Shown here: piece after piece, positions 14,811 to 48,600 of the stretch
How the letters are laid out: every line of letters begins with the position of its first letter
How positions within the stretch are numbered: the first letter of the stretch is position 1
From: Poseidonia sp.
GTDB taxonomy: Archaea; Thermoplasmatota; Poseidoniia; Poseidoniales; Poseidoniaceae
Assembly: GCF_029250625.1 (NCBI RefSeq)
Contig: NZ_JAQXEX010000031.1
Reading direction: 5' to 3' (one strand)
Length of the DNA: 57,552 bases
Notes under the pieces: model-generated
What the model was told of the DNA's origin: nothing
Database searches by the model: none
What the model saw: only the letters and a program-made list of their open reading frames with translations
Translations under genes and position numbers: made by a program

Positions 14811-19551
<4,741 letters not shown>

Positions 19552-19555
<4 letters not shown>

Positions 19556-22500
19556 CTTCGGTCCTCCAGTTCAAGGCGCATGGCCACTCCTAAACTCTTC
19601 ATTTCGTCTAGAAGTAGCTTGAATGCATATGAAGTCTGCACCTTGTAGACTTCTGCTCCATCTCCATGGATGGGGCTCACGTAGGTTCCACGCTTCGGGT
19701 CGTACCATGCAATGTGTCCAGATTGGGCACAGACATACATGTCAATACCGTCGGACTCATCGAGCAAACGGTCTTTGATGACCATCGATGCTCCGTGAGC
19801 AATCAGACAGTCACGTTCCATCTCACCAAATCGCAGACCACCTTGTCGGGCACGCCCTTCAGTCGGTTGGCGGGTCAAGATTTGTACACGTCCACGGGAA
19901 CGAGCGTGAATCTTGGAGGAGACCAGGTGGTGCAATCGTTGGTAGAAGATACATCCAACGAAGATGTCGGCAGGGTATGATTCACCGGTTTCACCGTTGA
20001 TCATGGTTTCACGGCCAGTGTGGTCAAGTCCGTTACGGACCAAACCATCACGCAGGCTGGATTCCTTTTCTCCACGGAATGCAGTACCGTCAACACGGCG
20101 GCCTTCCATAGCTCCAACCTTTCCACCGATCATTTCCAGAACGTGGGCCACGGTCATTCTCGAAGGAATTGCGTGTGGGTTGATGATGAGGTCGGGGACG
20201 ACGCCATCAGGGGTGAACGGCATGTCTTCAGGTTCAACCAAGCGTCCAATGACACCCTTTTGTCCGTGGCGGGAGGCGAATTTGTCTCCAACTTCAGGGA
20301 TTTTGTGGCTTCGGACCATGACACGGACCAAGCGGCCCGAGTCAAGGGATTCGGTGACGTAAACGTTGTCGACCCATCCCTTTTCGCCGTGGCGAACGAG
20401 CATTGAAGATTCCCGGCGTTCTTGGGCCATCAAAAAGGCTCCACCCGACGTCTCTTCTAGGAAACGAGGGGGGCTGGTCTTTCCAACCAACACGTTTCCA
20501 CCGATGAGTTCGGTTTCAGGAACAGGCAGTCCGTCGTTCTCCAAGTGCATGTAAGCTTCTGGCGTCTTGAGGCCCTTGATTTCCTGCTTTGAGGAACCGG
20601 GCTTTTCGATTTCTTCTACTTGTCCACCAGGGAATCTGCGGCGTTCTGCATTGTAGGTGCGGTTGAAGGTGGATCGGCCTAGGGCTCGGTCGATTGAACC
20701 CTTGTTCATGATGACAGCGTCTTGCATATTGTATCCGTGCAGGGACATGATGGCGACAATGAAGTTCTGTCCACCTGGGCGGTCATCGAAGTTCGTAGTA
20801 GCCATTGCTCGGGTTTTGGTAATCGAGCGCTGAGGGTAGTGCAGGATGTGAGCACGTGTGTCAGGTCGCATTCGGTAGTTGGCACTCGGCAATCCAAGCG
20901 ATTGCTTGACCATTGCAGTTCCACCGGTAACACGAGGTGTTGAGTTGTGTTCTGGGTAGGGGATGAGCGATGCACATACTCCCAAGACCAGTTGTGGGTC
21001 GATCTCACAATGGGTGTGTTCTTCGGTGTACAAGAGCGGGATTTCGAACTCAGTCGTGTTCCAGTCGCCGTTGGGCATGCGGACGTTGGCTCGTAGGTGA
21101 GCTGTTCGTGCGCCTGGTTCTCCGAGGTTCATCCACTCAATGTCCTCGTTCTTGACGGTACGGCCGGCAAGGCCGGCAGAGTCGCCTTCTGGGACGGTTT
21201 CTGGAAGTACGAACGGGCGTGGGGCGATGTAGAGGTCTTCTTCTTCCTCTGCATCAATCCACTCAACGATTCCTTCAATGACCAAGGAGCGGAAATTCAT
21301 TTCGCCACTGGTCAACTTTGAAAGATGCTCCAGGGTTAAGCGAGGAGCACCGTCGTAGAGGATGAGGACAGGTCGCAAAATACGTCCTTTGTCAGTGTTG
21401 ATGAAAATGTCCTTGTTTTCCTTGTCGTGTCGGATGGAGACCTCAGATGGAATCACACCGCGACGTCGAGCAGACTTGAAGTGCATGACCAATTTCTGTC
21501 CCTTCTTGTGGATTCCGTAAATGTCACCGTTCACGTGGATACGGTCACCATCGGTCCAGTCATCAGGTTGGTAAACTTCCAACTCATCAAGTCGTTCTCG
21601 GATTTCCACTTCATCGATGTTTTCGGAAATGTCAATCATTTGTGCGGCGTTCTTTACCAGTCCACAGTTTTGACCTTCAGGGGTCTCGTTAGGGCACAGG
21701 CGTCCCCATTGTGTGGGGTGGAGGTCACGTGCTTCAAAGTGAGGCTGACTTCGAACGAGCGGTGATGTGACACGGCGCATGTGAGATAGGGCCGCAAGAT
21801 AGGTGGTTCGGTCGAGGAGTTGGCTTACACCAGAGCGTCCGCCGACCCAGTTACCTGTCGCAAGTGCGTGCATGATTTTTGAGGTCAACACGTCAGGGCG
21901 AAGGCAGGAAGTAATCTTGAGTTCACGCTTTCGGTTGTGGTGTCGCTCAAGTTGGTACTTGAGGTCACGAGAGAGTTGACCTGCGGAGACACGGAAGAGG
22001 TCTTCAATGAGGTCTCCTGCAAGACGAACACGCTTGTTGGCGTAGTGGTCCTTGTCGTTCGGGTCTCGTCCTTCAATGGCCATTTCTAGAACTTGGCGGA
22101 CAATTCGGCCCAAGTAAATGGCCTTCTTGTCACGGTCTTCTTGGTTGTCTCCCAAGTGAGGAAGAAGTTCACGGTCTAGGAGTTGGTTGACTCGAGCTTC
22201 ACGGTACTCTTTTTGTTGCCCAGCTGCGAATTTCTTCTGAAGCCATTCGTGGCTTTCGTCTTTGGTTTCGACGCCGTATTCTTCGTTGTCCTTGACTTCG
22301 TTGATGTTGGCAACAATAAACTTGAATGAATCGGTGTTTCCAGCGATCGCTTGGAAAATTTGTTGGTCGTTTTCAACGCCAAGTGCTCGCATAAGGAGGA
22401 CGACGGGAATTGCAGTGGTTCCAGCAGTGCTGATTTTGACCATGAGCATTCCATCACGACGCTTTTCGACGGTGAGTGGTTTGCGCATACCGTCTTTCTG

Positions 22501-23169
22501 GGAGAAGATTTTTGCAACCTCAGTTTGCTTAGCATACCGCTTGTTGATTTCAACAGTCACGCGGTTAGGAGCAAGGTCTTCCATTGAGATGAGGACTCGC
22601 TCGGTTCCGTTGATGATGAAGTAGCCACCGGGGTCAAGAGGGTCTTCGCCTTTCTTGCGCAGAAGGTCATGCCAGTTTGCCTTGTCTTCATCAGAGGTGG
22701 TTGGTGCGAGGACACGGTCTCCAGCAATGTGCTTGGGGTGGAGGTTGCATCGTTCTGAGCGGACCATGATCGGCATGGAACCAACTTGAACGCCCTTCTC
22801 GGTAGGAGACGGGACACCGTTTCGCTTGATGGTGAAATCCATCGAAACAGGGGACATGTAGGTGAGCTTTCGCAGTCGGCATTGCATTGGAGTGGAGTCG
22901 TTGAGGGCTCCGTTGGCTTCCTTGACCATTGGCTTGCCGAGTTTCACGTTCTTGATTCGGATGACAATGTCTTGGTCGGCTACGTCGAGTTTGATGTATC
23001 CGCCTTCATCGTCGTTGAAATCTTCGTCGGTTCCGACACGGATGTTACGAATGATTTTCTCCATGCGGGAGAGGGAGTTCTCTGTAGCTGGGATACAGTC
23101 GTCGTATGATGCGAGTTGGTGGTTGACCAAGCTGCGTTCTCTGAAAAATGATTGAATGATTTCTTGCAT
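19552..23169 (-). CDS. rpoB: DNA-directed RNA polymerase subunit B (Rpo2, unsplit)
   Basis: GGYFIINGTERV, GDKFASRHGQKG, RFGEMERD. Confidence 0.97.
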
Positions 23170-26602: not shown

Positions 26603-28039
26603 ATGAAAAAAGGTCAACCTCCACCAGCCTTTGTGGACGAAAGCCAAGTTGCGGCCTCCCCTTCAGCGCAAGAAGAGGGCGATGGCAACTCAACAAAACT
26701 CACCGAATTGAAGGGCAATGACCCGTCGTTGCGTGCTCTTATCAAGGTGCTTTTGGACGTAAAAACGCTGCCTCATGTCATTCTCATTTTCGTCATATCA
26801 GCCCTGTTGTACCTGTTGTCGACCCGAGGCGCCGAACGCCTCAGTGCGATGGGATTTTTGTCCCTCACAGGGGGCTATGTAGTTCAAGGGTTGCTAGCAA
26901 AGTACGAACGGGTTGACCGACTAACGCGCCTTCCAGACTTGAGCGATGCCGTCGAAGCGGGTCGAATCAAACGATTCTTTTTCTCGTTCCGTATCTGTTT
27001 ACTCCCCCTTGCCTTTTCGTTGGGTTGGTTGCTCCTGCTGCTCGCAGTACTGGGTGGGGACGGCTTTGGAAATAGCATTCTTGACTCTCTGCCGTTTGTG
27101 ATGGGGAGTTTGTTCATCTTTTGGGCGGTGATGCAAGGAAGAAGTTTTGGACACTGGTTGTCTTCTGTAGCGGCTCTCCGATTGCCCGATGATGGTCCAC
27201 GAAACGGAGGTTTGAATGCAGTGGTCGGCGTTCATCTTTTATTGCTGACTGTCCTTTCTGGATTGATTCTTGCTGGTGTTGAATTTCTTCAAGGAGACGG
27301 AGATGGGTTGGCTCAGGATGTTGCAGAAAATGGACTTTTCTTTATCGGCTTTGCAGGATTGTTTCTGGCGTCAACGTCCCTTACATGGAAGCATCGAATT
27401 ATAGCCTCAAGGCATCGCTCCCTGCATCGTTTTTCTTCACGCTGGTTCTTATTGACTCAAGCCTTGATCACATGGCATTTTTTGACCGTTTGGCGTCATA
27501 CTGTCATGTCGTCTGGCGGTCCAATTATGTTGGTTGAAGAATTGGTGTTGATGATATCTACGGTCTTTATGGCCATTTGGGGGCTGACTTCGCGTTCCTA
27601 CAAATCCACATTTCGCTTGGTGGATGAACACAATGCATTGCCGATTGGACTTGCCTTTGGCTATGCGTACGCCGGCAGTGTAGCCATGTTGACGACCGTT
27701 CTGGACGACATTCGATACGTCATGATCAGTGGTCACATTGTCGTTATTCTTACCTTCATGTGGATGCAACGAAGGGTCTTGCTGAGTGTGCTTGCAGACC
27801 ACGATTCGACCGTCGGGATTATGCGCACGGTTCGCAAAGTGCCCTCGGAGGAGACTTCCGATGCCGCTGGCGAGAATGATCAACCCGTAGCAATCCCCAG
27901 CATTTCTTCCGATGCGGAGGAGTTCGGTGAATCCGCTGGTATTTCCGTAAGCGAGGAATGGTCTGAGCACAATACAAAAGACATCGGTCAAGATGTTGAA
28001 TGGAATGCCGGAGACGTCATTGAGTTGATGGACGATTAA
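26603..28039 (+). CDS. Polytopic membrane protein of unknown function
   Basis: About 10 hydrophobic helices and an acidic C-terminal tail. Confidence 0.75.
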   Translation: MKKGQPPPAFVDESQVAASPSAQEEGDGNSTKLTELKGNDPSLRALIKVLLDVKTLPHVILIFVISALLYLLSTRGAERLSAMGFLSLTGGYVVQGLLAKYERVDRLTRLPDLSDAVEAGRIKRFFFSFRICLLPLAFSLGWLLLLLAVLGGDGFGNSILDSLPFVMGSLFIFWAVMQGRSFGHWLSSVAALRLPDDGPRNGGLNAVVGVHLLLLTVLSGLILAGVEFLQGDGDGLAQDVAENGLFFIGFAGLFLASTSLTWKHRIIASRHRSLHRFSSRWFLLTQALITWHFLTVWRHTVMSSGGPIMLVEELVLMISTVFMAIWGLTSRSYKSTFRLVDEHNALPIGLAFGYAYAGSVAMLTTVLDDIRYVMISGHIVVILTFMWMQRRVLLSVLADHDSTVGIMRTVRKVPSEETSDAAGENDQPVAIPSISSDAEEFGESAGISVSEEWSEHNTKDIGQDVEWNAGDVIELMDD

Positions 28040-28950
28040 GCTGGCTTAATTCCTGAAAGCAACGTGACGACTCGAATGGTGTCGACTAAATCTTCACTGA
28101 CTCGGGCGCCGAGAATGACTTGGGCGTCATCGTCGAGGGCTGAAGTAAACAATTCAGCTACTGCATCAACTTGGCCAATGGTCATTCCAAGTCCACCTTC
28201 TACCTGGATCAAACATCCTTTCGCACCGCCGACATCCAGCGCTGCGAGTGGTGCTTTGAGGGCTGATTCCAAAATGCCTTTGGGGTCATCTGGGCGGCCA
28301 ATTCCGACCAACATTGTGGCCATTCCTTCTTGGTCTACGATGGCCCTCAGGTCCATCAAGTCCAGATTGATGAGCCCCATTCGCATCAAGGTCCGAACCA
28401 ATCCGTCCACTAAGTCTTCAATCCACTCAGCGCCCATCTGCCAGCTTTGCCCTTTTTCTCGTGCTTGGCGAGCAAGGCGCTCCAGTGACAATCGGACGGT
28501 GACGTGTGCGATGCGTTCAAGCCGTTGAAATCCATCCTCGGCGAGGGCCAAGCGAGTGGCTTGGGCCTCAAACGGCAAGCCTGCTACCGCGAGGACGATG
28601 GCTCCAGATTGCCGCGCCTGGCGGGCAAACTCATGCGCTGCTCCGGTCCCGACTCCTCCTCCAAGGCCGGTGAGGAGGATGACCAGTTCAGTGTCTTTGA
28701 GGAGTTGCTGAGTCAATTTGTTGAGTCCTCTCATCCGTTGTTCGGCAAGCGGCGGTAAGGCGGCACAACCCATGCTGTCTAGGGCGTGTCCGAGGCGAAG
28801 GACATGAATGGTTTCGCCGGTTTGGAAACTGCTGTCATCTGCGTCAATTAGGGCAAGATGGGCTCCCTTTCCGCAGCGAAGGTAGGCTTGGTGTGCCCAT
28901 GAACAACCAATGCCTCCGACTCCAGCAATCAGGATGTTGGAAGGGTCCAT
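28036..28950 (-). CDS. Divergent FtsZ/tubulin-family GTPase
   Basis: IAGVGGIG, GLGGGVGTG (tubulin signature variant), LPFEAQ..R, T7 loop INLDLMDL, C-terminal VILGARV...IRVVTLLSG. Start 28950 or 28971. Confidence 0.85.
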   Translation of the reverse strand: MDPSNILIAGVGGIGCSWAHQAYLRCGKGAHLALIDADDSSFQTGETIHVLRLGHALDSMGCAALPPLAEQRMRGLNKLTQQLLKDTELVILLTGLGGGVGTGAAHEFARQARQSGAIVLAVAGLPFEAQATRLALAEDGFQRLERIAHVTVRLSLERLARQAREKGQSWQMGAEWIEDLVDGLVRTLMRMGLINLDLMDLRAIVDQEGMATMLVGIGRPDDPKGILESALKAPLAALDVGGAKGCLIQVEGGLGMTIGQVDAVAELFTSALDDDAQVILGARVSEDLVDTIRVVTLLSGIKPA

Positions 28951-29005
28951 GGGCGGCAATGGCCGAAGCATCTCCTTGAACTTTGGTGTGTGTGGTGTTG
29001 GAATT

Positions 29006-29305
29006 CTAATCCACGTAGCGAAGGTATCGGCGTCTTGCGTCCCTCGCCCAAGCGTTATCGGGCTCAAGGGCAAGAACCCGGTCGTAGTATTGAATTGCAT
29101 TTTCAAATTCCGAGAGGTATCGGCCGTACAAGTGCCCGAGGTTCGAAAGGACAGGAATGCACGCTTCGTCGCCTTTCAGCATGCTAAGGAGTATTTTCTC
29201 AGCAGCCCCAAGCGCTCCTTTGAGCATCAAATCCTCGGCCTCGTCGAGCAACTCGAGTTGTTTGTCGGAGAGATTGTATGTGTTGTCGAAGGTATGATTT
29301 CCCAT
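29006..29305 (-). CDS. Small tetratricopeptide-repeat protein
   Basis: LSNLGHLY...FENAIQYYDRVLALEPDNAWA matches the TPR consensus. Confidence 0.8.
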   Translation of the reverse strand: MGNHTFDNTYNLSDKQLELLDEAEDLMLKGALGAAEKILLSMLKGDEACIPVLSNLGHLYGRYLSEFENAIQYYDRVLALEPDNAWARDARRRYLRYVD

Positions 29306-29494
29306 GGGTCTCACACTCTCCGAACGGGTCGCCCTCCATCAAATCTCCCCCGCACTGAACCGGCTAAAATACGGCGTGGGGGGCTGTTGTTCATTTTTTG
29401 CAAACAAACGCTACACTGCGCCGCAATTTTTGTGGCGTTTTGCTGACAATGTTTAAGGAGTCCGTGCAAGTCGGAAACATGTAAGGGTGAGGCT

Positions 29495-30340
29495 ATGCTC
29501 AAAACTACACGAACGTCCCGAACTTCCCTGCTGGTTTTGGTGGGGCTTCTTCTGGTCATTCCAGCACTCGCATCTTCCTATCACGGGGGCATTGGTGGCC
29601 CTCAATCGCACCAAGGCTCAAACGGCGCCGTTGAAATTGATGATGTCGCCAAATCCGGCTGCCTCTGCCACAACGAGGTAGCCGACAACTCGGTCCAAAT
29701 TATCCTCGATGACGTTCCTTATGGATGGGTTGCAGGCGAAACTTACACGCTCCGCCTCCAATTGATCGGCGGACCTGATGCAACGGGAGTTTACACTGCT
29801 GGATTTGCAATGCGAGTTTCTCTTGGGACGCTGACCGGAGACGACGTCCAAAACTGGGAAATCGACGGCACGGTCGACGAACAGACATTGACTCACACGG
29901 AAGCATCAGCCGCAACCAGCGACCGTTCGTGGACCTTTGATTGGGTCGCTCCCGCTGAGGCGGAAGCTGGTGCAGCAACCTTCTGGATTTCGGGCAACTC
30001 GGTCAACGGAGACCAAGGGCCAGGTGTTGAGGACCGATGGAATCAACTCCAATTCGCACTCACAGAAGGCGACGACGCATCTACTGCACTCGGCACCCGC
30101 ACCCTCTTTGCCGGCGACGGAAACGTCAGTCCTCCCGAGCCCGACCATCACGGCGTTGACCTCCATCACATGGGTGCAAAGTTGCGTGCCCACTGGCTTG
30201 GATTGCTTGGATTCGGTGCAGTGATCGGCGTTATCGTCTTTGCTGGTCTGCTTCTCCGCTATGGCTTCTCAACGTCCTACAAGGGCCGAAGCAACCAACT
30301 CAGGTTGCGCTACAAACTCAATCGAAGAGGTGACCAGTGA
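29495..30340 (+). CDS. Exported Reeler/'choice-of-anchor V'-like protein with a CxCH motif and C-terminal TM anchor
   Basis: Signal peptide, GCLCH, 'SWTFDWVAP...ATFWISGNSVNGD' Reeler-like motif, His-rich linker, TM helix. Confidence 0.7.
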   Translation: MLKTTRTSRTSLLVLVGLLLVIPALASSYHGGIGGPQSHQGSNGAVEIDDVAKSGCLCHNEVADNSVQIILDDVPYGWVAGETYTLRLQLIGGPDATGVYTAGFAMRVSLGTLTGDDVQNWEIDGTVDEQTLTHTEASAATSDRSWTFDWVAPAEAEAGAATFWISGNSVNGDQGPGVEDRWNQLQFALTEGDDASTALGTRTLFAGDGNVSPPEPDHHGVDLHHMGAKLRAHWLGLLGFGAVIGVIVFAGLLLRYGFSTSYKGRSNQLRLRYKLNRRGDQ

Positions 30341-30783
30341 TGGACGACACAATCACAATCCTGTTGCGCGGTGTTGCAGACGGCTCAGTATCGGTAGATG
30401 ATGCGCGGACCGCTTTGGAAGACGTGGATTTGACCGAAGACCAAATGACGTCCGCCATCGACCATGGCGTGTTCAATTTGGCGGAATCAGGAACCATCGT
30501 TAGCGCTTCACTCGCCCCGTCTGGCGGCTCCTATCTCACCATGTTCTTCTTGGGATGGGGTCTGTTTTGGATTTGCTACTGGAGTTTCTCTATGATTTAC
30601 GGACTCGCAAAGGGTTGGGATCAGCAACAACTTTCCTTCCACCTCGCCATGACCTTTACCACACTCATCATGGTCGGCGTAATCTATCTCAAATTTGTTT
30701 TGCCTGATACAATCATCGTAAAGCATTCTCAGAACAAGTTTGTTCCTGAGCACATGAAGGATTGGCGGGAGTACAAGTGGTGA
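30337..30783 (+). CDS. Two-TM membrane protein in the Rieske/cyt b operon
   Basis: GTGA overlap with the previous gene; two hydrophobic helices. Confidence 0.7.
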   Translation: MMDDTITILLRGVADGSVSVDDARTALEDVDLTEDQMTSAIDHGVFNLAESGTIVSASLAPSGGSYLTMFFLGWGLFWICYWSFSMIYGLAKGWDQQQLSFHLAMTFTTLIMVGVIYLKFVLPDTIIVKHSQNKFVPEHMKDWREYKW

Positions 30784-30789
30784 TGAAAC

Positions 30790-31635
30790 ATGGCGCGTGA
30801 ATACGAACTCAAACCAGCACCCAGCGAAGGCGCATCAGGCCTTCTTGATGCAGCCACAACCATCAATCGTCGTCAGTTCCTACGCTACGGTTTCAATACC
30901 GCTGCAGGTGTTCTCACCGCATCTCTAGGTATGCTCGGCTTTGCTGCTATTTTACTGCCCCCTGGTGGCGGTGGTGGCGGTGATTTGGCCGTTAAGTTCT
31001 GGGCAAAGGGTCGTGAAGACTCCGCCTGGTACGGTGCGCAACACCTTCAATCCATGACCAAGAGTTCCTTCGTGGCTGAGGCAGCAGCATCCTCAACGAA
31101 AACGGCTGGCGCCTCCGGCGTGTGGAACGGAGTTCCTGTTGTGGTCATGTACGTCGAACATTCAAAGTATGCAGGCACACCTGAAGCCAACGGTAAAGCA
31201 CGCTTCCAATTCACTGAAGGTATTGATGAAACCGGAAAATACGTCGGCCACTTTGATGACCTCGCTGAAGCAGACCCACGTTTGATGCCCAGCGAAGACC
31301 TTGTCATGGTATTCGGTCGTTGCACGCACTTGTGTTGCATCCCGGGATGGCAACTTGTTTCCAACTCCTACACAGAAGACTCATGGACGCCTGGCGGTGG
31401 AGACGACGGCGGGACGAAACTGTTCTGCATCTGTCACTCTTCTCGTTTCGACCCAACTGTTCTCGAAATGAATACGAACCGCAACCGTTCCAACGGTGCA
31501 ACATTCAACTATGCTGGAATCCGCCGTTCAGGTGGGCCAGCACCGGTGGGTCTCCCCATCATCCCCATTCAACTGAATGGCGATGTTTTGGAAGGTCTTA
31601 CCGACTACGTGGATTGGTACACATATTGTGACTGA
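30790..31635 (+). CDS. Rieske [2Fe-2S] subunit of a Rieske/cytochrome b complex
   Basis: Tat motif NRRQFL, TM helix, poly-Gly hinge, CTHLCC and CICHSSRF boxes, GPAP. Confidence 0.93.
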   Translation: MAREYELKPAPSEGASGLLDAATTINRRQFLRYGFNTAAGVLTASLGMLGFAAILLPPGGGGGGDLAVKFWAKGREDSAWYGAQHLQSMTKSSFVAEAAASSTKTAGASGVWNGVPVVVMYVEHSKYAGTPEANGKARFQFTEGIDETGKYVGHFDDLAEADPRLMPSEDLVMVFGRCTHLCCIPGWQLVSNSYTEDSWTPGGGDDGGTKLFCICHSSRFDPTVLEMNTNRNRSNGATFNYAGIRRSGGPAPVGLPIIPIQLNGDVLEGLTDYVDWYTYCD

Positions 31636-31641
31636 GGTGAT

Positions 31642-32511
31642 ATGATGACTACAATGTTCTGGATTCTTTGGTTCTTTATCGCCTTCTTGGTGGTTCTCGT
31701 TGCGTTTACTTTGCGCAAGGAAAACCAAGATATGCCCCGCCGTGACATTCTACGTGCTGTAGAATCGACCGGTAAGATGGGCGTGGCTGAACGGTCGTTT
31801 TTGTGGGTCTTTTCGTGGCTTGATACTCGATTCCGTCTTCAGGACTACTGGAACATGTCCAAAGGCGCATATTACAACATGCACCGACAAATGCCTCTTA
31901 CTCACGCTGAAAAGTACAAACTGCGTATCATTTGGTACTGGTACCCACTCTACTGCTTGGGAGGAATTTCGTTCCTATCGTTCATCATCTTGGTCATCAC
32001 AGGTACCGTTCTGGGAATTTACTATGTTCCTGGAGGAGAAGGAGATCCATCGCCAGCTTATGCGAGCATGGAATACATCATGACGCAACTTCCCTTTGGC
32101 TACATCCTCCGGGCAGTTCACCACTGGACGACTCACTTCATGGTCGCAAGCGTCTTTTTGCACATGTGTCGTGTTTACTTTACGGGTGCATACCGAAACC
32201 CTCGTGAACTTAACTGGCTCATCGGTGTTGCCTTGATGGCTCTGACCATTGTCTTTGGATATTCAGGATATCTTCTGCCGTGGGACAGTCTGGCATACGG
32301 TGCCGCAATTATTGGAATCAACTTGGCGAATTCAAGTCCGCTGGTTGGGAAGTACGTCGCAACATTGCTGTTTTCAGGCTCTGAATTGACTCCTTTGACG
32401 GTTACACGTATGTACTTCATTCACGTGTTCATCTTACCGGTTATTGTTACAACGCTTATCATCATACATTTGTTCATTGTCTGGGTACAAGGCATTGCGG
32501 AGCCGCATTGA
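31642..32511 (+). CDS. Cytochrome b6-like subunit (N-terminal half of split cytochrome b)
   Basis: YCLGGIS, heme ligands in RAVHHW...FLHMCR and FIHVF...IIHL, PRELNW, GYLLPWD, C-terminal QGIAEPH. Confidence 0.93.
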   Translation: MMTTMFWILWFFIAFLVVLVAFTLRKENQDMPRRDILRAVESTGKMGVAERSFLWVFSWLDTRFRLQDYWNMSKGAYYNMHRQMPLTHAEKYKLRIIWYWYPLYCLGGISFLSFIILVITGTVLGIYYVPGGEGDPSPAYASMEYIMTQLPFGYILRAVHHWTTHFMVASVFLHMCRVYFTGAYRNPRELNWLIGVALMALTIVFGYSGYLLPWDSLAYGAAIIGINLANSSPLVGKYVATLLFSGSELTPLTVTRMYFIHVFILPVIVTTLIIIHLFIVWVQGIAEPH

Positions 32512-32526
32512 TACGGAGGGTAAAAT

Positions 32527-35334
32527 ATGGGATTAATCGATAATTTTGGCAGAGTTGCCTCCATGTACATGGAGGAAAAGCAACACCTTCAGGAAGCTGA
32601 AGAGAAGCGTAAGCGCACCCGAACGGGACACGGATTTTGGCCACATGAAGTTCTTCGTGATAGCATCATTTTCGCATCGATGCTTGCGATTCTTCTGTTC
32701 TATGCATGGCTTATTCCGCCACCGCTTCACGGTGCGGCTGACCCCTATGCACAGGCAGGATTCGTTTTCCCTGACTGGTACGTTCTGTTCTCGTACGGAT
32801 ACTTGCGATGGGGCGAATATTTGCCTCAATTCGTTGTACCGACCGGTTTCATAGGCGAAATTGTGGGTCAGCCCATGTTCCCTTGGAACGCTGCATGGTG
32901 GGGCGCTGCACTTACTGGAATCCCAGTGGGTATTCTCGCTCTTCCTCCGTTCCTCGGTGGCCGTGAAAAGCGACCTGTAGAGGACCCATGGTTCGCTGCA
33001 GCAGGAGCAGTTTATCTCGCCCACATTTGGTTCATCTCTGTGTTTTCAATCAACATCTTCTTGGAACTCTACGGCAAAAACAGGTCTGATTTTTGTAAAT
33101 TAGATTCACACGGTGATTTACTGTGTGGTTATCGGGAACCGTGGATTGCAGAAGTCTTCAATTCCATACCGTGGGTGATGACCGGCGTTCTAATGTGGAT
33201 TGTAGTTTACTTTGTAGGTCGAGGACTCTTGGTCCGTGCATGGGGTACGAGTTTTAACGTTGCTAAGAGCCGTCAACTTTTGGTTGGAGCTCTTCTGATC
33301 TCAACTGCGGCAACCGTTGCTACCTTCGATACATATGACGATGGTTTTTGGGATGCAAAGGGACTCCTTACCATCAAAGATTACGGTGAACTGGAAGCAA
33401 TGCGAACCCAACCCGTTGACGTTCATGTCCATGATACCAATGAATTTACTGACGATCGGGGTTGGTCCGAGTCAGGAGTTGTTCCGACGACTGCATTCTT
33501 AGATTGGAACATTTACCAACCTGCAAGGTACATTATTACAGATTTTGCTGATGCAAACGGGCATCAGGACGCTGCTAACGGAATCAATGCTGCTGCAGGA
33601 TCACAAACCTTCAACGGAGGCGAAGGTTGGAGCACAAACGGTACCTTCTCCGTTACCGAAGATACTACCACTTTCCCCGATGGCCACCATGAGGAAGTAA
33701 CGTCCATCACATCGGATTTCTCATGTGAGTTCCGCTCCAGCGAGCGTAAAATCAACGATGTTTCAACTCAAAGCATGGTGACTACCACTCTTGTTGTGAC
33801 CAACGCCGCAGGCAATGAGGTTGTTTCCTTTTCCAATTGCGAAGGCGCTACGACCGAGTTGACTGTCGGAACGTACTCTTACACTTACGATGTTACCGTC
33901 AGCGGCGCCCTTGCTTTGAACGACAGCATTACGACCGAGACCAGTTTCTCGATGAAATCTTTCCAGCCACTTCTTGTCTGGAATGAAAATGCTCCAGCTT
34001 CGCTTGCAGGCCATACAGTGAACCTCTCCAATGCAGAAGAAATGGCCCTTGGTGGTTCTGCCTTCTCATCGATTGAAAACCCAACCTACCACACCAACCC
34101 CAAGTCACTGGATGCAAAGTTGACCTATGCAATGTTCATCCCTTGCGTTACCTTTGGAGCCCTTGTCTTTGTCCTGTTGCGATACATGGCCCGTGGCTAT
34201 GAGTTCGAGATGAACAAATGCTACGGCTGTGACCTTTGTGACGATGCGTGCCCAGTTCGATTGTTTAACGGTGGAGATAAATTGAACATCATCTACAACA
34301 CTTGGAATAACGAAGACGACGGTGTACCGATGTATTCCTGTCTCACATGCTCGGCATGTACCAATGCATGTCCACAACTTGTTGACTACGACTCATACGT
34401 TGATATCCGCCGCAGTCTCATCGTTGGCGGTCCACAGGCTGAGATTCCTCACACCGTTCTACAGGCAGTTCTTTCTGCGGAGGCTGACGAAGCAGCAGAC
34501 GTGGAATTCGTCGCAACCGAAGATTACCCCATCACATCAAACATCGGCTACTACCCTGGCTGTGTCGACTACCTTGACCAAGAAATGGTGTTCTCACACG
34601 TTAACGAAGGCACCATGAATTTGGGAGACTCCACTACTGCAGCGTTTACGCTCTTTGAAGAGATGGGCACCGACGTTTCTTACTTGGGCCGTGACTTCCT
34701 GAAATGCTGTGGTCACGACCAAAAGTGGCAGGGCCTTGATGAAGTCTTTGAGAAGCTCAAGGCGTACAACCAACGAAAGATCCACGAATCTGGAATCGAC
34801 ACCCTCGTTTCATCGTGTGCAGAATGTTTCAGAACGTTTGCCCGAGACTATGAGTTGGAAGACGTCAAAGTCATGCATACCACTGAATTCCTCATTGAAC
34901 AAGGCTTTGACATGAATCTAAAGTCCGAAGAAACCACGGTAACCTACCACGATCCATGCCGTCTTGGCCGCCAAATGGGAATTTACGACGAGCCACGTGA
35001 CCTCATCAATGCGGTTGAAGGTGTAGAAATTGTTGAGATGGAGCACCATGGAGAAGACGCCATGTGTTGCGGTGTTTCCAGTATGATGTCCTGCAACGAA
35101 GACGCACGCTCCTTGCGTGTATCTCGTATGGAAGAAGTTCGTGCAACGGGCGCCGAAACCATGCTCACGTCCTGCCCAAAGTGTGTTTCTCACTTTGAGT
35201 GTTTGAAGTTCGAAGGCGATGAAGCATACGAAGACATCGAGATTTTGGACGTCGTAACATTCCTTGCTCGCCAAGTTAACGAAAAGAAAGCACAGGCAGT
35301 TGAGTCCAACGTTGGCGAAACTGTTGAAGCTTGA
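32527..35334 (+). CDS. Cytochrome b6/f subunit IV-like domain fused to an external beta-rich domain, a 2x[4Fe-4S] domain and two CCG domains (HdrD/GlpC-like)
   Basis: FWPHEVLRD and FPDWY (PEWY equivalent); CYGCDLCDDACP and CLTCSACTNACP; YYPGC..CCGH..SSCAEC and YHDPCRLGR..CCG..TSCPKC. Confidence 0.9.
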   Translation: MGLIDNFGRVASMYMEEKQHLQEAEEKRKRTRTGHGFWPHEVLRDSIIFASMLAILLFYAWLIPPPLHGAADPYAQAGFVFPDWYVLFSYGYLRWGEYLPQFVVPTGFIGEIVGQPMFPWNAAWWGAALTGIPVGILALPPFLGGREKRPVEDPWFAAAGAVYLAHIWFISVFSINIFLELYGKNRSDFCKLDSHGDLLCGYREPWIAEVFNSIPWVMTGVLMWIVVYFVGRGLLVRAWGTSFNVAKSRQLLVGALLISTAATVATFDTYDDGFWDAKGLLTIKDYGELEAMRTQPVDVHVHDTNEFTDDRGWSESGVVPTTAFLDWNIYQPARYIITDFADANGHQDAANGINAAAGSQTFNGGEGWSTNGTFSVTEDTTTFPDGHHEEVTSITSDFSCEFRSSERKINDVSTQSMVTTTLVVTNAAGNEVVSFSNCEGATTELTVGTYSYTYDVTVSGALALNDSITTETSFSMKSFQPLLVWNENAPASLAGHTVNLSNAEEMALGGSAFSSIENPTYHTNPKSLDAKLTYAMFIPCVTFGALVFVLLRYMARGYEFEMNKCYGCDLCDDACPVRLFNGGDKLNIIYNTWNNEDDGVPMYSCLTCSACTNACPQLVDYDSYVDIRRSLIVGGPQAEIPHTVLQAVLSAEADEAADVEFVATEDYPITSNIGYYPGCVDYLDQEMVFSHVNEGTMNLGDSTTAAFTLFEEMGTDVSYLGRDFLKCCGHDQKWQGLDEVFEKLKAYNQRKIHESGIDTLVSSCAECFRTFARDYELEDVKVMHTTEFLIEQGFDMNLKSEETTVTYHDPCRLGRQMGIYDEPRDLINAVEGVEIVEMEHHGEDAMCCGVSSMMSCNEDARSLRVSRMEEVRATGAETMLTSCPKCVSHFECLKFEGDEAYEDIEILDVVTFLARQVNEKKAQAVESNVGETVEA

Positions 35335-35364
35335 ATGAATTTGACAGTAAGCGGTTGAATTCTT

Positions 35365-35381
35365 TGCATCCTCTGGATGCA
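35365..35381. terminator. Short hairpin between convergent operons (possible terminator)
   Basis: TGCATCC-TCT-GGATGCA, a perfect 7-bp inverted repeat. Confidence 0.3.
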
Positions 35382-35408
35382 GTAATGACGAAACGATGTG
35401 CTCCGGTT

Positions 35409-35699
35409 CTAATCATCGGATTCGTTTTCTTCATCCTCGTTCATACCTACGATTTCGTAGTTTGAGGGGAAGAGAGCAACGATAATTCCGGCCAGTAGAG
35501 AAATGAATCCCCACGTAAAGTTCTGATAATAAATCAGCAACTCTAGTGAAAGGGCCACCAAGAAGAGCCCTCCAATGTTCGAAGTCCAAACGAGCGTCTT
35601 GAACGTCGATAGGCTAACTCCAGTGGTGCCGGGGTTACGGTATGGACCGAATTCTCCTCCAAATCGTTGAGCTGATGGATCTTTTCCTTTCTTTGACAT
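35409..35699 (-). CDS. Small two-TM membrane protein
   Basis: Two hydrophobic helices, acidic tail, AGGA RBS. Confidence 0.65.
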   Translation of the reverse strand: MSKKGKDPSAQRFGGEFGPYRNPGTTGVSLSTFKTLVWTSNIGGLFLVALSLELLIYYQNFTWGFISLLAGIIVALFPSNYEIVGMNEDEENESDD

Positions 35700-35710
35700 A
35701 CTATCCTACC

Positions 35711-36043
35711 TCATCGGTCAATCATGGTGATTGCGTCCGTTGGACACGCAAGCACGCACAGCCTGCAACCCGTGCAGGAGTCTCGAATAATTTTGGCCTT
35801 ACGATTGCTTTCGACTGAAAGCAGTGGACTTTTCACATCAACAAAATAGAGTTCGATTGCGTCGTCATCACATACGATGGTGCATTGGTCACAACCGATG
35901 CATTTCCGTTCCTCAACAAAGGCTACGGTGGTTTCGCCACCTTTTGTATTGGCGCGTTGCTCCCCTCGTTGGCGATTGAGAGCCGTGCGGATTCGCATGG
36001 CTTCTTCTTCTCGCCGGCGACGCAACTCATCAGGGCTGGTCAT
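35711..36043 (-). CDS. 2x[4Fe-4S] ferredoxin with a charged N-terminal helix
   Basis: CIGCDQCTIVC and CTGCRLCVLACP. Confidence 0.9.
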   Translation of the reverse strand: MTSPDELRRRREEEAMRIRTALNRQRGEQRANTKGGETTVAFVEERKCIGCDQCTIVCDDDAIELYFVDVKSPLLSVESNRKAKIIRDSCTGCRLCVLACPTDAITMIDR

Positions 36044-36738
36044 GTTGTCACCACCGTTGGAGGTTCCCCTTCAAACTTGGCAACGGTCAAGTTGACCAAT
36101 ACGTCTCCTAGGCAATAGAACGCTCCTACAAGAAGAGGAGGATTCCAAGCGGTTAATCCAGTCCATGGGACCTCATTAGCCCACGTCCAATTTTGGAGGT
36201 AGGTTCCAAGCAATTCCATTGCAAGAGCCGCCCAGGCCATTGCTGCATAGAGACGAGGTTGTGGTCCCCACTGCGTGAATGCAAGGACAAGGAGGAGAAG
36301 GAATATTCCAGATGTATCTCCTCCAGTCCACAGACCGTACAACACCATGGGTACGAAGGGTAGCAAAAGGGGCATAGCCCATGAAATCTTGAATCGAAGT
36401 GCAGCTCGCCTGCCAAAATCAAAGAGAAAATAGTGACCTGCTGGAACAAACAGTGGCATGAGGTCCCGCTGATATTCATACACAAGCCAAACCTCTGAGA
36501 AAAACAACTCCATTGGTGTTGCGATCGCAACTACTGTAAGCATCTCAATTCGCTCTTTTCGGCCGGTGGACGCATAAATGCGTCCAAAGAGTGCCCAACA
36601 CCAAATGTTAACCGGCCATTCCGCCAGGGAGTCCGGGAGTAGGCCTCCAAGAGCCGTGGCTGAGATCCATAGGCCAACCGCAATGGTGCCAACGTACCAA
36701 AGCGAGCGGTTCATGGTATAGGCGATGAGGTTCTCCAT
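36040..36738 (-). CDS. Polytopic membrane protein of unknown function
   Basis: About 7 hydrophobic segments with an internal repeat (ME....W.Y/W); translationally coupled to its neighbours. Confidence 0.7.
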   Translation of the reverse strand: MENLIAYTMNRSLWYVGTIAVGLWISATALGGLLPDSLAEWPVNIWCWALFGRIYASTGRKERIEMLTVVAIATPMELFFSEVWLVYEYQRDLMPLFVPAGHYFLFDFGRRAALRFKISWAMPLLLPFVPMVLYGLWTGGDTSGIFLLLLVLAFTQWGPQPRLYAAMAWAALAMELLGTYLQNWTWANEVPWTGLTAWNPPLLVGAFYCLGDVLVNLTVAKFEGEPPTVVTT

Positions 36739-36739
36739 T

Positions 36740-37780
36740 TCAGTTTGACCGCTCAATATGGTGCTCAATTTTCACACCGTTTTTGACCATTAGAGAAAGG
36801 GCTCGGTCCAGGAATGGCGAGGGGAGTTCTTCGGGGGAGTAAACGCCTGGTGAGAGAACGTCAGGGTGTTCACACATGGTGAGGGCGGTTGCAAGAGTGA
36901 CCAGCCCGGTTGTTCGGGCCATGGACGAGTCGCCTTTGGAGCCGCTGTCCTCAACTCGCCAGATGAACCTCTGAACATCATTTTCCGCCTTGACTTCCAT
37001 CCATGTGAATTCACTGCGTGTTTTGTCAAGTGTCCATGATTCCAAGAGTGCATCCAGATTCAATTCTCCAGCGTCTCGCTCGTCAATGTAGCGTTGAATA
37101 TGGCCGGGCCAACGAACCGTATATTCAGACATTTCATCCGCTTTCATGGTGTAGAGCAGCGACCTTAGCCCGTCTGAAAGAAAGGCTTCCATCGAACCCT
37201 TTCCACTGACCTCAATGAGATGTCGTTCATCAAGAGCAGGAAGCGTCGCTACACTGGCCTGTCTGACTACACGGGCAGGTCGTGTGTACTCGGCGATGAC
37301 GTCTGCTGGCGAAAACGGTGCCATGTAGGACCAATCGTCATCGGGTTGAGAAGGGTTTCCGCCCACGCGGATTTCAGCATTTCTAAATGTTCCAAGTTTG
37401 GTTTGTGCTTCTGCAAGCAACATGTTCGAGAGGCCAGGGGCAATGCCAACATCCCACACAACGGTAGCGTTGGATTCTACTGCGAGTTCCTGAAGGCGGT
37501 CTGGAGTTTCTTCTGCAAAGGAAAGGTCCACAACGGTTCTACCAAGACGAACAAGTGCCTCGGTACATCCTCCTCCAATTTCGCCCGGCAACATGTTGAC
37601 CACCAAACCGTCAGGAAGTATGTTGAGCCTTTGAGTGATGTCTCCAACGTGCATGGTGATTCCTTGAATGGAATTCGGTTTGAGGTCGTACACGTGAACA
37701 TCGTGTCCGGATTCTACCAGATGCCGTACTACGAATGCCCCGACTAAGCCGCTTCCAAGGCAATGGATCGTTGTCATCAT
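36740..37780 (-). CDS. Saccharopine dehydrogenase / L-lysine 6-dehydrogenase family oxidoreductase
   Basis: Rossmann LGSGLVG, DVGIAPGLSNML, IAEYTRPAR, TVRWPGH, SSMARTTG. Confidence 0.85.
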   Translation of the reverse strand: MMTTIHCLGSGLVGAFVVRHLVESGHDVHVYDLKPNSIQGITMHVGDITQRLNILPDGLVVNMLPGEIGGGCTEALVRLGRTVVDLSFAEETPDRLQELAVESNATVVWDVGIAPGLSNMLLAEAQTKLGTFRNAEIRVGGNPSQPDDDWSYMAPFSPADVIAEYTRPARVVRQASVATLPALDERHLIEVSGKGSMEAFLSDGLRSLLYTMKADEMSEYTVRWPGHIQRYIDERDAGELNLDALLESWTLDKTRSEFTWMEVKAENDVQRFIWRVEDSGSKGDSSMARTTGLVTLATALTMCEHPDVLSPGVYSPEELPSPFLDRALSLMVKNGVKIEHHIERSN

Positions 37781-45352: not shown

Positions 45353-45592
45353 ATGCCGAACAAACCCGTTTGTGATTTACCCGGATGCGGAGAGGAAGGG
45401 ACCGTCGTTTCTCGGCTCTCTCCCGAAGGTTACCTCGTCGCAACGGGAAAGAAGGCGTATTCCTTCAGGGAAGCCTATCGTCGCTTCCACTATTGCTCTG
45501 GGCATCATGATGAACTCATGGGGGGCGTTTGGTCCCGAGTTCGCAAGCCCGATGACAAAAAGGACGGCCACGTCGCCCCAACTGCCATCTGA
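45353..45592 (+). CDS. Small putative Zn-binding protein
   Basis: CDLPGC...YCSGHH; TTAATC box at -30. Confidence 0.55.
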   Translation: MPNKPVCDLPGCGEEGTVVSRLSPEGYLVATGKKAYSFREAYRRFHYCSGHHDELMGGVWSRVRKPDDKKDGHVAPTAI

Positions 45593-45636
45593 TGGCTAGT
45601 GGTGATGCTGATATACCTACCACTCTTAGGAAGCCC

Positions 45637-48600
45637 ATGGCGCATCCAACGAAGGTTAGGAATCAACGGCCGGTCCGGTCCGTTTCAGTAGTGTTCATGC
45701 TGATTGTATCATCACTTGTCGCATTAAGTGCTCCAAGTGTTTCTGCAGTTGGAGCAAATCAAAATGACCTTAATTCAGGGGGCGATTTGCCTGACAACTC
45801 TACGGTGAATATTACGAATTACATTTTCTCTGGATCCTACAGCGGTAACGGTGAACTCGACTACGGTGATGATTCTGATTTACTGAAGGTCGCATTATCC
45901 GCAACTCAAGGCCTTTCTGCCTCCCTTTCATTCCCTGCTTCAACGACCTTCTCGAACGGAACAACAGTTAGCAATGATTTCGACTTGTTGTTTTACGACT
46001 CCTCGCTAAATCTTCTTGATGATTCATACGCTTCCAATCCTGAGACACTTACCACAAACACCACTGCGGCCACCGGGGGAATGGTCTACATCGAGATTTT
46101 CCGATATGATGGCGCAGGTACATGGAGTTTGACCTTGAACAAATTCACTGTAAGCAACGGCACAAGCGGAGGCGGTGGCGGTAGTTCCATCACAAATTGT
46201 TCAGGAAATGGGACAACTGCCCCAGACATTCTCGAACCAAACGATTCCATGACAGCAGCGACATCAGCTTCCTTGCTTCCGTTGTATTGCTCAGGCCTTT
46301 CCATTCATTCATCCATCGACGAAGACTTCTTTGAAATCGATATGATTTCAGGGGTCACCTATTATGTGAACTTGACTTTTACTCACGCTAACGGTGACAT
46401 TGATGGGCAGTGGATGGACTCCAGCGGCTCTTCTCTCAGTTTGAGTGGATTTGGTTCGCTTGGCTCTGGATCTGACAATGAAGCCGCATCATTTACAGCA
46501 ACCACGAATTTCACATCCTATCTGAGGGTTTTCCTGTACCAATTTAGCTCGGCAACATCAAACATATATGACATTGAACTTTCAACGGATAATCCAGGTG
46601 GCGGACAAAGCATGGAAACTGTTGATGTTAGCATCAATAACCGAACCTCAGCGACACTTTCATTCGCCGGGCTTACCACAGGTACGACGTATTCTTACAA
46701 CTCTTCTTACGGACAAATGTACATTGATGGCAACGAGGTTTGGGCCTCCTCATCCAACGGCACCTTCAATGCAACGAATACCACTTACATGGTGAACATC
46801 ACCACACAAGCAACCTATGATGAATCGATGATGATGGTCTCATCAACTCTCAGTGATGCCTCCGGAATGGCTTTGAACAGTGACGTTGATGAACTCCTCC
46901 TCGAAATGGTTCAGACCACTCAGACATCTTCAACAACCGGTGAAATCGCCCTGACCAACCTCTCCATTGGAACCGATTACTATCTGCGTTGGATTGTTCT
47001 TGATTACTCGGAATTCGAAAATAACATCACTGTTTCCAACGACACAAATGCCGCTCTCAACGCATCAATGATCGACTCTGATGACTGGACCTTTACCCCG
47101 ACCACATCTTCCATCAACTATCAGATTACATGGGCAGGACCAACTACGATGAACGACCATTTATTCTATGCTGAACTTTCGCTCAACAACTCTGTCGTGG
47201 ACATTGATACCAGTGATAACATCACAGGCCTTCACATCAGCGAATTTATTCCGCAACTTCCAGCCTTAGTCATCAACTCGTATTCCACAAGTTCAACTGC
47301 TGCAACAAATAATGTCCGTGCTGAAGGTTTGGACTTGGTGACCGGTGACAGTTACAAGTATCAATACCGAGTTGAAGATTCCTCCGGCGCAAACCTTGTC
47401 GTTTCAACCATGACTTCAATCACCGCAACAGCACAGAACATGTCCCTTCCATACTTCAACTATACAACACCTGCTTCATCCGGAACGTATTGTGTCTTTG
47501 CTGACCTCTACTCGTCTGCAAATGTACAACTTATCGGAGACTCGAACTGTTTCTCATTGACACTTGATGATGACAACGACGGCGTGGCCAATGAACTTGA
47601 CCAATGCCCAAACACTTCAACCGGCGCCACCGTGGACCAGTACGGATGTGCATTGGACCAGAAAGACAGCGACGGTGACGGATACAATGACGACATTGAC
47701 GCCTTCCCGTATGATTCAAGCCAGTATTCAGATATGGATGGAGATGGCTACGGAGATAACGCCAGCGGCAATTCTTCAGATGCCTTCCCTACAGATTCAA
47801 CACAATGGTCGGATGTTGACGGTGATGGCTACGGTGACAATGGAAACGGAAACTACCCGGATGCCTTCCCAACCGATTCAACTCAATGGTCAGATTCAGA
47901 CGGTGATGGCTATGGAGACAACGCCAGCGGCAACTATCCTGATGCCTGGCCAGCAGATTCCACTCAATGGGAAGACTCTGACGGGGACGGCTACGGTGAT
48001 AATCCGTCTGGAACAAATGGAGATGCTTTCCCTAACGACTCCTCTCAATGGTCCGATTCAGATGGCGATGGATACGGTGACAACCCTGCAGGGACATCAC
48101 CTGATGAATTCCCTTCGGATAACACCCAGTGGGAGGATGCAGACGGGGACGGTTACGGTGACAATCCAACCGGTACAAATGGCGACCATTTCCCTTCCGA
48201 TTCCTCGCAATGGTTTGATGATGACGGAGATGGCTATGGAGACAATCAAGCAGGTACCGATCCGGATGCATTCCCCAATGATTCCACACAGTGGAGCGAT
48301 GTCGATGGTGACAGCTACGGAGACAATGCAGCTGGACTGAATGGAGATGCTTTCCCGAACGAGCCAACGCAGCATGCCGACCAAGACAACGATGGTTATG
48401 GTGACAACGCAAGTGGCGTAAACGGTGATCAATGCCTCGGAACACCACCAGGACAAGTTGTGGATTCAACTGGATGCGCTGCTTCTCAACTGGATGCAGA
48501 TTTGGACGGAATTGATGACGCCGCTGATGCTTGCCCCGACACGCCAGCCGGTGAACAAGTCGACAATGTTGGCTGTTCTTCGAGTCAAGAAGACAGTGAT

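Follow-up and report, generated by a model that had tools for sequence, protein, structure and literature searches.

We analysed a 57,552-nucleotide stretch of Poseidonia sp. DNA, hereafter the window (NCBI RefSeq assembly GCF_029250625.1, contig NZ_JAQXEX010000031.1; contig C31 in our numbering), in which a Rieske/cytochrome b operon ends in a gene, g5, that joins subunit IV of the complex to an iron-sulfur (Fe-S) module of the HdrD/EtfD type. The source organism is a Marine Group II (MGII) archaeon (Poseidoniales), homologues being named Candidatus Poseidoniaceae, Thalassarchaeaceae or Poseidonia; its genome amounts to 1.93 Mb and is 93% complete. Five open reading frames (ORFs), g1 to g5, run head to tail on the positive strand (Table 1). 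The g3 protein presented both the CxH and the CxxH box of a Rieske protein; its match to TIGR01416 (3.9e-10) was below the cut-off and no Pfam match was obtained at E<=0.01. The g4 protein matched PF00033 (2.6e-40) and aligned with cytochrome b6 (1vf5_A, 1.6e-42) so that YCLGG and the four heme-ligand His were all in register, and it was the single match to a cytochrome b of this type in the genome. The original prediction, made from the sequence alone, had described a five-gene operon whose last gene combines subunit IV, transmembrane (TM) helices, an external beta-rich domain, a dicluster domain and two CCG domains, and which encodes no CxxCH cytochrome. The ORFs, the Pfam matches and the AlphaFold2 (AF2) model bore out this layout, the first ferredoxin motif starting exactly at nt 34219, and the C..CH pattern of a c-type cytochrome (f or c1) was absent from all five operon proteins.

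Table 1. Features of the Rieske/cytochrome b locus and of a related gene elsewhere in the genome (window coordinates unless a contig is named).
Feature	Position	Strand	Description
g1	29495-30340	+	281 aa; signal peptide, extracytoplasmic beta-sandwich, C-terminal TM anchor; choice-of-anchor V / Reeler-like
g2	30337-30783	+	148 aa; two TM helices (hydropathy); weak DUF7318 likeness (PF24002, E 6.5e-4, below cut-off)
g3	30790-31635	+	Rieske [2Fe-2S] protein; twin-arginine N-terminus RRQFLRY; boxes CTHLCC and CICHSS
g4	31642-32511	+	cytochrome b6-type; extra N-terminal TM helix and four-helix core; four heme-ligand His; YCLGG (Cys105)
g5	32527-35334	+	935-aa fusion of subunit IV, extra TM helices, external domain, TM helix and Fe-S module
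g5 residues 1-185	32527-33081	+	subunit IV part, helices E, F and G; PDWY (82-85) between the first two TM helices
g5 residues 206-265	33142-33321	+	two extra TM helices (AF2 206-242 and 245-265; hydropathy)
g5 residues 266-526	33322-34104	+	acidic extracytoplasmic domain of ~260 aa; beta-sandwich core 355-485
g5 residues 527-554	34105-34188	+	sixth TM helix (TM6), chain back to cytoplasm (AF2, hydropathy)
g5 residues 560-620	34204-34386	+	HdrC-like 2x[4Fe-4S]; CxxCxxCxxxCP at 565 (nt 34219) and 605
g5 residues 673-895	34543-35211	+	two HdrB-like CCG domains
d96	35409-35699	-	96-aa small membrane protein; no Pfam family
fd110	35711-36043	-	110-aa 2x[4Fe-4S] ferredoxin; basic N-terminal helix; Fer4_21 1.9e-14
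EtfD orthologue	C53:8369-10477 (L002:1492-3600)	-	702 aa

Hydropathy of g5 gave hydrophobic segments at about 46-64, 122-144, 161-179, 213-235, 251-269 and 532-550, and the AF2 model (mean predicted local distance difference test score, pLDDT, 78.8) placed helices at 39-62, 122-137, 154-184, 206-242, 245-265 and 527-554. Because six helices leave both termini on one side of the membrane and PDWY must face outward, the Fe-S module is placed in the cytoplasm by this topology (N-in/C-in), as the original prediction had proposed; the inner loops were also richer in K/R. The subunit IV part was only weakly recognised in searches: Pfam did not detect it in the g5 of the window at E<=0.01 and the match to a solved b6f subunit IV was weak (E 0.28), while PF00032 (Cytochrom_B_C) was detected in shorter fused relatives (8.6e-10 and 1.4e-4), which align with g5 through PDWY. 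The external domain was modelled with strands at pLDDT 84-94 and contained 37 D+E versus 10 K+R. It was specific to Poseidoniales and had no Pfam family; apart from module-like folds, the sole notable Foldseek matches, both weak, were with a GOLD domain and with a phage tail fibre.

The Fe-S module was the best-modelled region of g5 (pLDDT ~90). Its first cubane motif begins about 10 residues past TM6, and Fer4_9 and Fer4_8 matched at about 3e-7. PF02754 (CCG) matched with 9.1e-23 in two stretches, and both CXnCCGXmCXXC motifs were complete, with C679, C727, C728, C764 and C767 in the first domain and C811, C847, C848, C883 and C886 in the second. A module profile (A3) matched EtfD of Mycobacterium smegmatis (9ojn_A) with 8e-56, HdrC (5odc_C) with 2.6e-21 and HdrB with 1.3e-10; Foldseek searches with the AF2 model of g5 likewise returned EtfD (1.6e-15), LutA (TMt 0.79) and HdrB (TMt 0.62-0.66). 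These profile and fold matches assign the module to the HdrC+HdrB (HdrD/EtfD) group, in agreement with the HdrD-type architecture first suggested, with M. smegmatis EtfD as its nearest solved relative. The best NCBIfam match of g5 was TfrB (3.7e-33, below the cut-off). In an alignment of 55 sequences reaching down to ~30% identity (A1), all eight Fer4 Cys and the CCG Cys of the second domain were at least 90% conserved; C728 and C767, in the first domain, were below 90%. That domain is degenerate in two other families, with CVG in f23 and CAEG in f4, and its CCG motif varies inside Poseidoniales too, the g5 orthologue of locus L049 (G028:C9, family f3) having a single CCG triplet. Four further residues, E766, C856, H889 and C892, were invariant or nearly so in the module family and different in EtfD, and might mark an additional metal site; two of them, C856 and C892, fall within the interface predicted for the ferredoxin (see below).

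The fusion was found throughout the order. Among a 301-genome sample of the phylum Thermoplasmatota, a g5 match was present in 42/42 genomes of family f1 and 21/21 of family f3. A g5 match was present in all 41 of the 41 Poseidoniales relatives searched: 25 gave a single full-length match, 11 gave two matches within one open frame (about 930-1340 aa) and five were cut by contig ends. More than 600 homologues of g5 were found, and those listed at full query coverage measured 915-942 aa. No internal stop was present in the 11 of 11 Poseidoniales loci fetched, since the two stops flagged in L051 fall past the end of the gene. Contigs of an independent DNA run (X2) and of RNA libraries spanned the g4/g5 boundary, and one RNA-library contig spanned the TM6/Fer4 junction. 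An assembly artefact or a split gene was thus rejected by the order-wide fusion, the uninterrupted frames and the bridging contigs; orthologues consistently split into two genes, which would have spoken for such an artefact, were not what we found. The one split form, in sister family f4, is cut between Fer4 and CCG and stays within the operon. RNA-library contigs from three studies covered 27, 25 and 21 of 30 bins over 29400-36800; they show contiguity and are consistent with expression, a transcript being unproven by contigs. Positions 36316-36800 had zero cover in the three RNA libraries and were covered by the DNA run, a difference that carries no evidential weight.

Two small genes next to g5, fd110 and d96, appear to belong to the same unit. 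In family f3 they lie directly downstream of g5 on the same strand (8/8 loci); in family f1 the pair is inverted, i.e., convergent to the operon, but still adjoins it in four loci, namely the window, L010, L012 and L045. d96 adjoined fd110 in 12/12 fetched Poseidoniales loci with a fd110 homologue. The five genes originally assigned to the operon therefore stand, and from the synteny in the f3 loci the unit is larger than was first proposed, with fd110 and d96 also part of it. Related arrangements occur in other families: the next gene in f4 and f31 encodes a polyferredoxin with a homologous domain, and in f23 and f25 HdrA-like and MvhD/FlpD-like genes follow directly downstream. This genome, at 93% completeness, gave no FlpD match. 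Complex prediction with g5 residues 528-935 and fd110 gave an ipSAE of 0.81 (runs 0.79, 0.81 and 0.81), versus 0.00 for the best of three controls; by a rough calibration this mark was attained by 58/80 solved complexes and 2/110 mismatched pairs. Contact agreement among the runs was at least 82% and the pLDDT of the partner at least 79. The predicted pose set the N-terminal helix of fd110 on the first CCG domain and its cluster loops, including the cluster-I loop, against the second, at residues 856-866 and 892-898. This prediction speaks for binding of fd110 to the CCG domains of g5.

Outside Poseidoniales, the architecture search in relatives recovered shorter forms of the fusion. In family f4 a match was present in 8/8 genomes, and the two loci fetched presented g1, g2, Rieske and cytochrome b genes followed by a 430-aa protein with subunit IV, TM and Fer4 parts, a 365-aa protein with two CCG domains and a 282-aa polyferredoxin. 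Families f23, f25 and f31 had a shorter fusion (600-790 aa) devoid of the external domain and the two extra helices. In these three families cytochrome b6 was itself fused N-terminally to plastocyanin-type cupredoxin or Big_5/Ig-like domains (L021:9022-10872, L025:9564-12020, L022:1169-3802 and L020:10086-11948), therefore a presumed acceptor for the Rieske cluster is built into cytochrome b. Nine families, f10, f18, f26, f28, f32, f33, f34, f48 and f29, had a plain subunit IV in the core operon, with neither a fused nor an adjacent module in loci fetched to ~8 kb on each side (less at contig ends); weak unfused CCG matches were found ~5 kb off in two of these module-less loci, L056 and L061. 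In other Thermoplasmatota, HdrD-like genes that stand alone (six loci, L028-L033) adjoined neither a cytochrome b nor a Rieske gene, and were uninformative on this complex.

The sequence of cytochrome b was compared in the same families. The CxGG motif marks b6-type cytochromes that contain heme cn, according to the passage of PMC5600118 on this heme, and from this motif we take it that heme cn is probably bound covalently on g4. CxGG was kept in 7/7 representatives of module-bearing lineages and in all six module-bearing families sampled, and was replaced by [T/S/A]xGS in 8/9 module-less families. In the cytochrome b tree the four motif-less families tested formed one clade (100/99) and the rest was unresolved.

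Other parts of the locus were also inspected. The g1 protein exceeded the cut-off of NCBIfam NF041895 (choice-of-anchor V, 1.3e-24), and a G-C-x-C-H-N motif stands directly after its signal peptide, with G55, C56, C58, H59 and N60 invariant in an alignment of 20 sequences (A2). The AF2 model of g1 had a pLDDT of 67.6, with the GCxCHN stretch unmodelled (pLDDT <50), and its top Foldseek match was the Reeler domain of F-spondin (E 1.3e-4). Homologues of g1 were located upstream of the Rieske/cytochrome b genes in most module-less loci fetched, and g1 is a conserved first gene of Thermoplasmatota Rieske/cytochrome b operons; g2 has syntenic homologues in other families as well. The basic cytoplasmic tail behind the TM anchor of g1 was strongly conserved. 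The gene occupies the operon position expected of cytochrome f or c1, with no recognisable cofactor site. Identification of g1 as a heme or copper protein was unsupported, given no Pfam match and a Reeler-like fold with weak scores, and a match to cytochrome f (rank 35, probability 0.63) was not significant. Two plastocyanin/azurin-type copper proteins encoded elsewhere in the genome (C95:345-605 and C4:3019-3297) are candidate carriers between the complex and an oxidase. Divergently upstream of the operon lies a gene of the FtsZ/tubulin family (28036-29106, minus strand; FtsZ_C 3.5e-17, Tubulin 4.6e-9), and very long ORFs (1734, 1061, 1205 and 1377 aa) are located in the window at 34-5238, 16370-23169 and 45592-49725.

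We propose that the operon encodes a complex III, a Rieske/cytochrome b complex of split b6f type, whose quinol-oxidation site (Qo) would be ordinary, with the Rieske protein, PDWY and heme bp, and with no c-type cytochrome to serve it. Towards the cytoplasm, subunit IV would run into the HdrD/EtfD-type module, which would bear two [4Fe-4S] cubanes and, in its CCG domains, two further clusters, and fd110, encoded with d96, would be a dedicated ferredoxin subunit docked on the CCG domains. A wire of about six clusters could in this way lead from cytoplasmic low-potential carriers, the presumed ultimate donors, to fd110, the CCG clusters, the cubanes, hemes bn/cn and the quinone at the quinone-reduction site (Qi). 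With inward flow, quinone at Qi would be reduced by electrons of ferredoxin level and the resulting quinol re-oxidised at Qo, which would make the complex a ferredoxin:quinone oxidoreductase as well. We give about an even chance to such an n-side wire, through which low-potential electrons would be fed to Qi and hemes bn/cn. Input is favoured because the EtfD wire runs inward, the partner is a ferredoxin, the hosts are aerobic heterotrophs (as the passages of PMC6336850 on MGII describe them) and one paper made a passing proposal of this kind for a related order (see below). In EtfD, as presented in the structural passages of PMC13083937, a D1-D2-D3-D4-heme b-menaquinone wire has gaps of 4-9 Å, and the cubane after the last TM helix adjoins the heme.

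Several observations weigh against this proposal. That the clusters lie within electron-transfer distance of the hemes is inferred, and the full g5 model reached a predicted template modelling score (pTM) of only 0.51; the direction of flow, most likely into quinone, is likewise inferred from the considerations above and not from the computation. Heme cn is read from the CxGG motif, and family f29 retains CxGG with no adjacent module (5/5 loci). Because the tree groups the motif-less families in one clade, the co-distribution of CxGG and module amounts to few evolutionary events and is weak evidence, though it would agree with a functional link. Eight families run the core operon without the module, which is therefore an accessory added onto a complete Rieske/cytochrome b complex and not a requirement. 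The partner is not always at hand within Poseidoniales: fd110 lies 2.4 kb away in L044, and none was found within 3 kb in L043 (Poseidoniaceae). The complex prediction was made from custom alignments with a calibration that is only rough, and a ferredoxin domain on a CCG protein resembles the LutA-LutB and Hdr assemblies, so that the score could reflect this likeness. Finally, both CCG motifs are complete and Glu766 stands at the position of the EtfD ligand His583, which would leave room for a catalytic disulfide site.

This last observation leads to an enzymatic reading, in which disulfide reduction, or thiol oxidation, of a cofactor or protein would take place at the CCG clusters, as in HdrDE, DsrMK and TfrB, with the quinone cycle as electron partner. 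The two complete CXnCCGXmCXXC motifs speak for it, as do the TfrB family match, the Glu766 that replaces the His closing the non-catalytic EtfD cluster, and the conservation of C856, H889 and C892 in the module family. Nevertheless, the Cys of the first domain are lost in f23 and f4, one Poseidoniales locus retains a single CCG triplet, C728 and C767 fall below 90% in A1, and a ferredoxin docked on the CCG domains, as predicted, fits electron transfer over substrate access; no candidate disulfide substrate turned up, and no search for one was made. We regard this enzyme as quite unlikely. Somewhat better placed, though still unlikely in our judgement, is the same wire run outward: the low-potential branch (Qo to heme bp to hemes bn/cn) would drain through it and, via bifurcation at Qo, reduce ferredoxin or another cytoplasmic acceptor, a design of the kind put forward for the anammox bc complexes that have NAD(P)H subunits. 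In principle such a wire can run either way, the HdrA-like flavoprotein and MvhD/FlpD genes of f23 and f25 are parts of flavin-based bifurcating Hdr complexes, and we count here the PDWY motif, which we take to suggest a low-potential quinone. Transfer from Qo to the n side, however, already opposes the membrane potential, and the potential of ferredoxin lies further uphill; aerobic heterotrophs, moreover, would gain reduced carriers from their substrates, so the need for such an outlet is not evident, and the 93%-complete genome yielded no FlpD match.

The kinship with EtfD raises the question whether the module accepts electrons from electron transfer flavoprotein (ETF) in fatty-acid and amino-acid oxidation, as EtfD/EMO does. 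In favour of this, no solved relative is nearer than EtfD, genes for EtfB and EtfA lie at C39:10613-12376, and PF05187, the ferredoxin domain of ETF:quinone oxidoreductase, was not found in the genome. The same genome, however, encodes a much closer EtfD orthologue, a 702-aa protein with its own TM domain, 2x[4Fe-4S] and two CCG domains, which matched 9ojn_A with 7e-97, whereas the match of g5 to 9ojn_A was confined to residues 601-924 (E 2e-23). By this likeness the 702-aa protein is probably the ETF:quinone oxidoreductase of this archaeon, so ETF oxidation would have its own enzyme and route; the syntenic partner of g5, besides, is a ferredoxin and not ETF. ETF as the donor was made very unlikely by these results. 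A module with no role in electron transfer, whether it senses redox state, serves assembly or structure as an appendage, or is a remnant in decay, would agree with the eight related families that run the core operon in its absence. We find it barely credible, given the conservation of the Fer4 and second-domain CCG Cys across the 55 sequences, the quality with which the module was modelled and the dedicated, conserved partner that was kept.

In the surface ocean, MGII archaea count among the most abundant heterotrophs. If the wire does feed quinone, the entry of electrons into the MGII respiratory chain needs redrawing, an orphan ferredoxin gains a role, and the complex offers a natural model of an n-side redox partner covalently fixed to a b6f-type complex. 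Passages of an MGII reconstruction (PMC6336850) name an 'MGII specific complex III', with cytochrome b and Rieske but no canonical bc1, and an orphan RnfB, and draw no link between them. For Angelarchaeales, Diamond et al. 2022 (PMC9038741) mention hdrD-like and rnfB-like genes beside complex III, where reduced ferredoxin may enter. Like the present locus, that one associates a cytochrome b of Thermoplasmatota with an HdrD-like gene and a ferredoxin-like one, and the ferredoxin-entry idea is the same; the mention takes two sentences, in which fusion to subunit IV is unstated and no analysis is given. No description of the fusion was found in open-access papers and bioRxiv full text, supplements being outside this scope. 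What these texts yielded were passing mentions only.

The complex can be compared with b6f and with the b6-type complexes of Firmicutes and Heliobacteria, with which it shares the four-helix b6 core, the four His, CxGG, a subunit IV with P(E/D)WY and the Rieske protein. Unlike b6f, it has no cytochrome f, c1 or other c-type subunit, with a Reeler-like anchored protein and a 2-TM protein instead, and its cytochrome b bears an extra N-terminal TM helix. To subunit IV are added three TM helices, the external domain and the cytoplasmic Fe-S module, the last of which is found in no solved b6f or bc1. For b6f, the route by which ferredoxin-level electrons arrive at heme cn during cyclic electron flow has been under debate for two decades, as the relevant passage of PMC5600118 recounts. 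It is possible, as a tentative extension that we rate clearly below even chances, that the present complex is a hard-wired natural version of that route, in which the ferredoxin subunit and the HdrD-type cluster chain would pass single low-potential electrons directly to heme cn/bn, one enzyme acting as both ferredoxin:quinone reductase and quinol oxidase, and that relatives with HdrA/MvhD couple flavin-based to quinone-based bifurcation.

With EtfD (9ojn) and the EMO/DUF224 proteins, g5 shares a single-chain layout in which 2x[4Fe-4S] and two CCG domains come after a membrane part, subunit IV in the case of g5 and a five-helix heme b domain in that of EtfD. The first CCG motif is complete in g5, in contrast to the C-T-G of EtfD, which carries a linear [3Fe-4S] cluster (residue roles from the corresponding passages of PMC13083937), and Glu766 is found where EtfD has His583. 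HdrDE, HdrABC-MvhD, DsrMK and QmoABC likewise combine HdrC-like and HdrB-like domains and offer a parallel in the coupling to a membrane cytochrome b. The aerobic heterotroph studied here gave no sign of a coenzyme M/coenzyme B (CoM/CoB) or DsrC-type substrate, none being searched for. Its genome has no HdrA/MvhD set (no FlpD match), in contrast to HdrABC-MvhD, whereas in the f23 and f25 relatives HdrA-like and MvhD/FlpD genes are present too, a likeness to Hdr and Qmo. The cytochrome with which the module of g5 is partnered has a Qo site and belongs to the b6/Rieske type, and not to the NarI/HdrE type found in HdrDE. The membrane partners of the HdrD/EtfD cluster chain are in this way extended from NarI-type cytochromes to Rieske/cytochrome b complexes.

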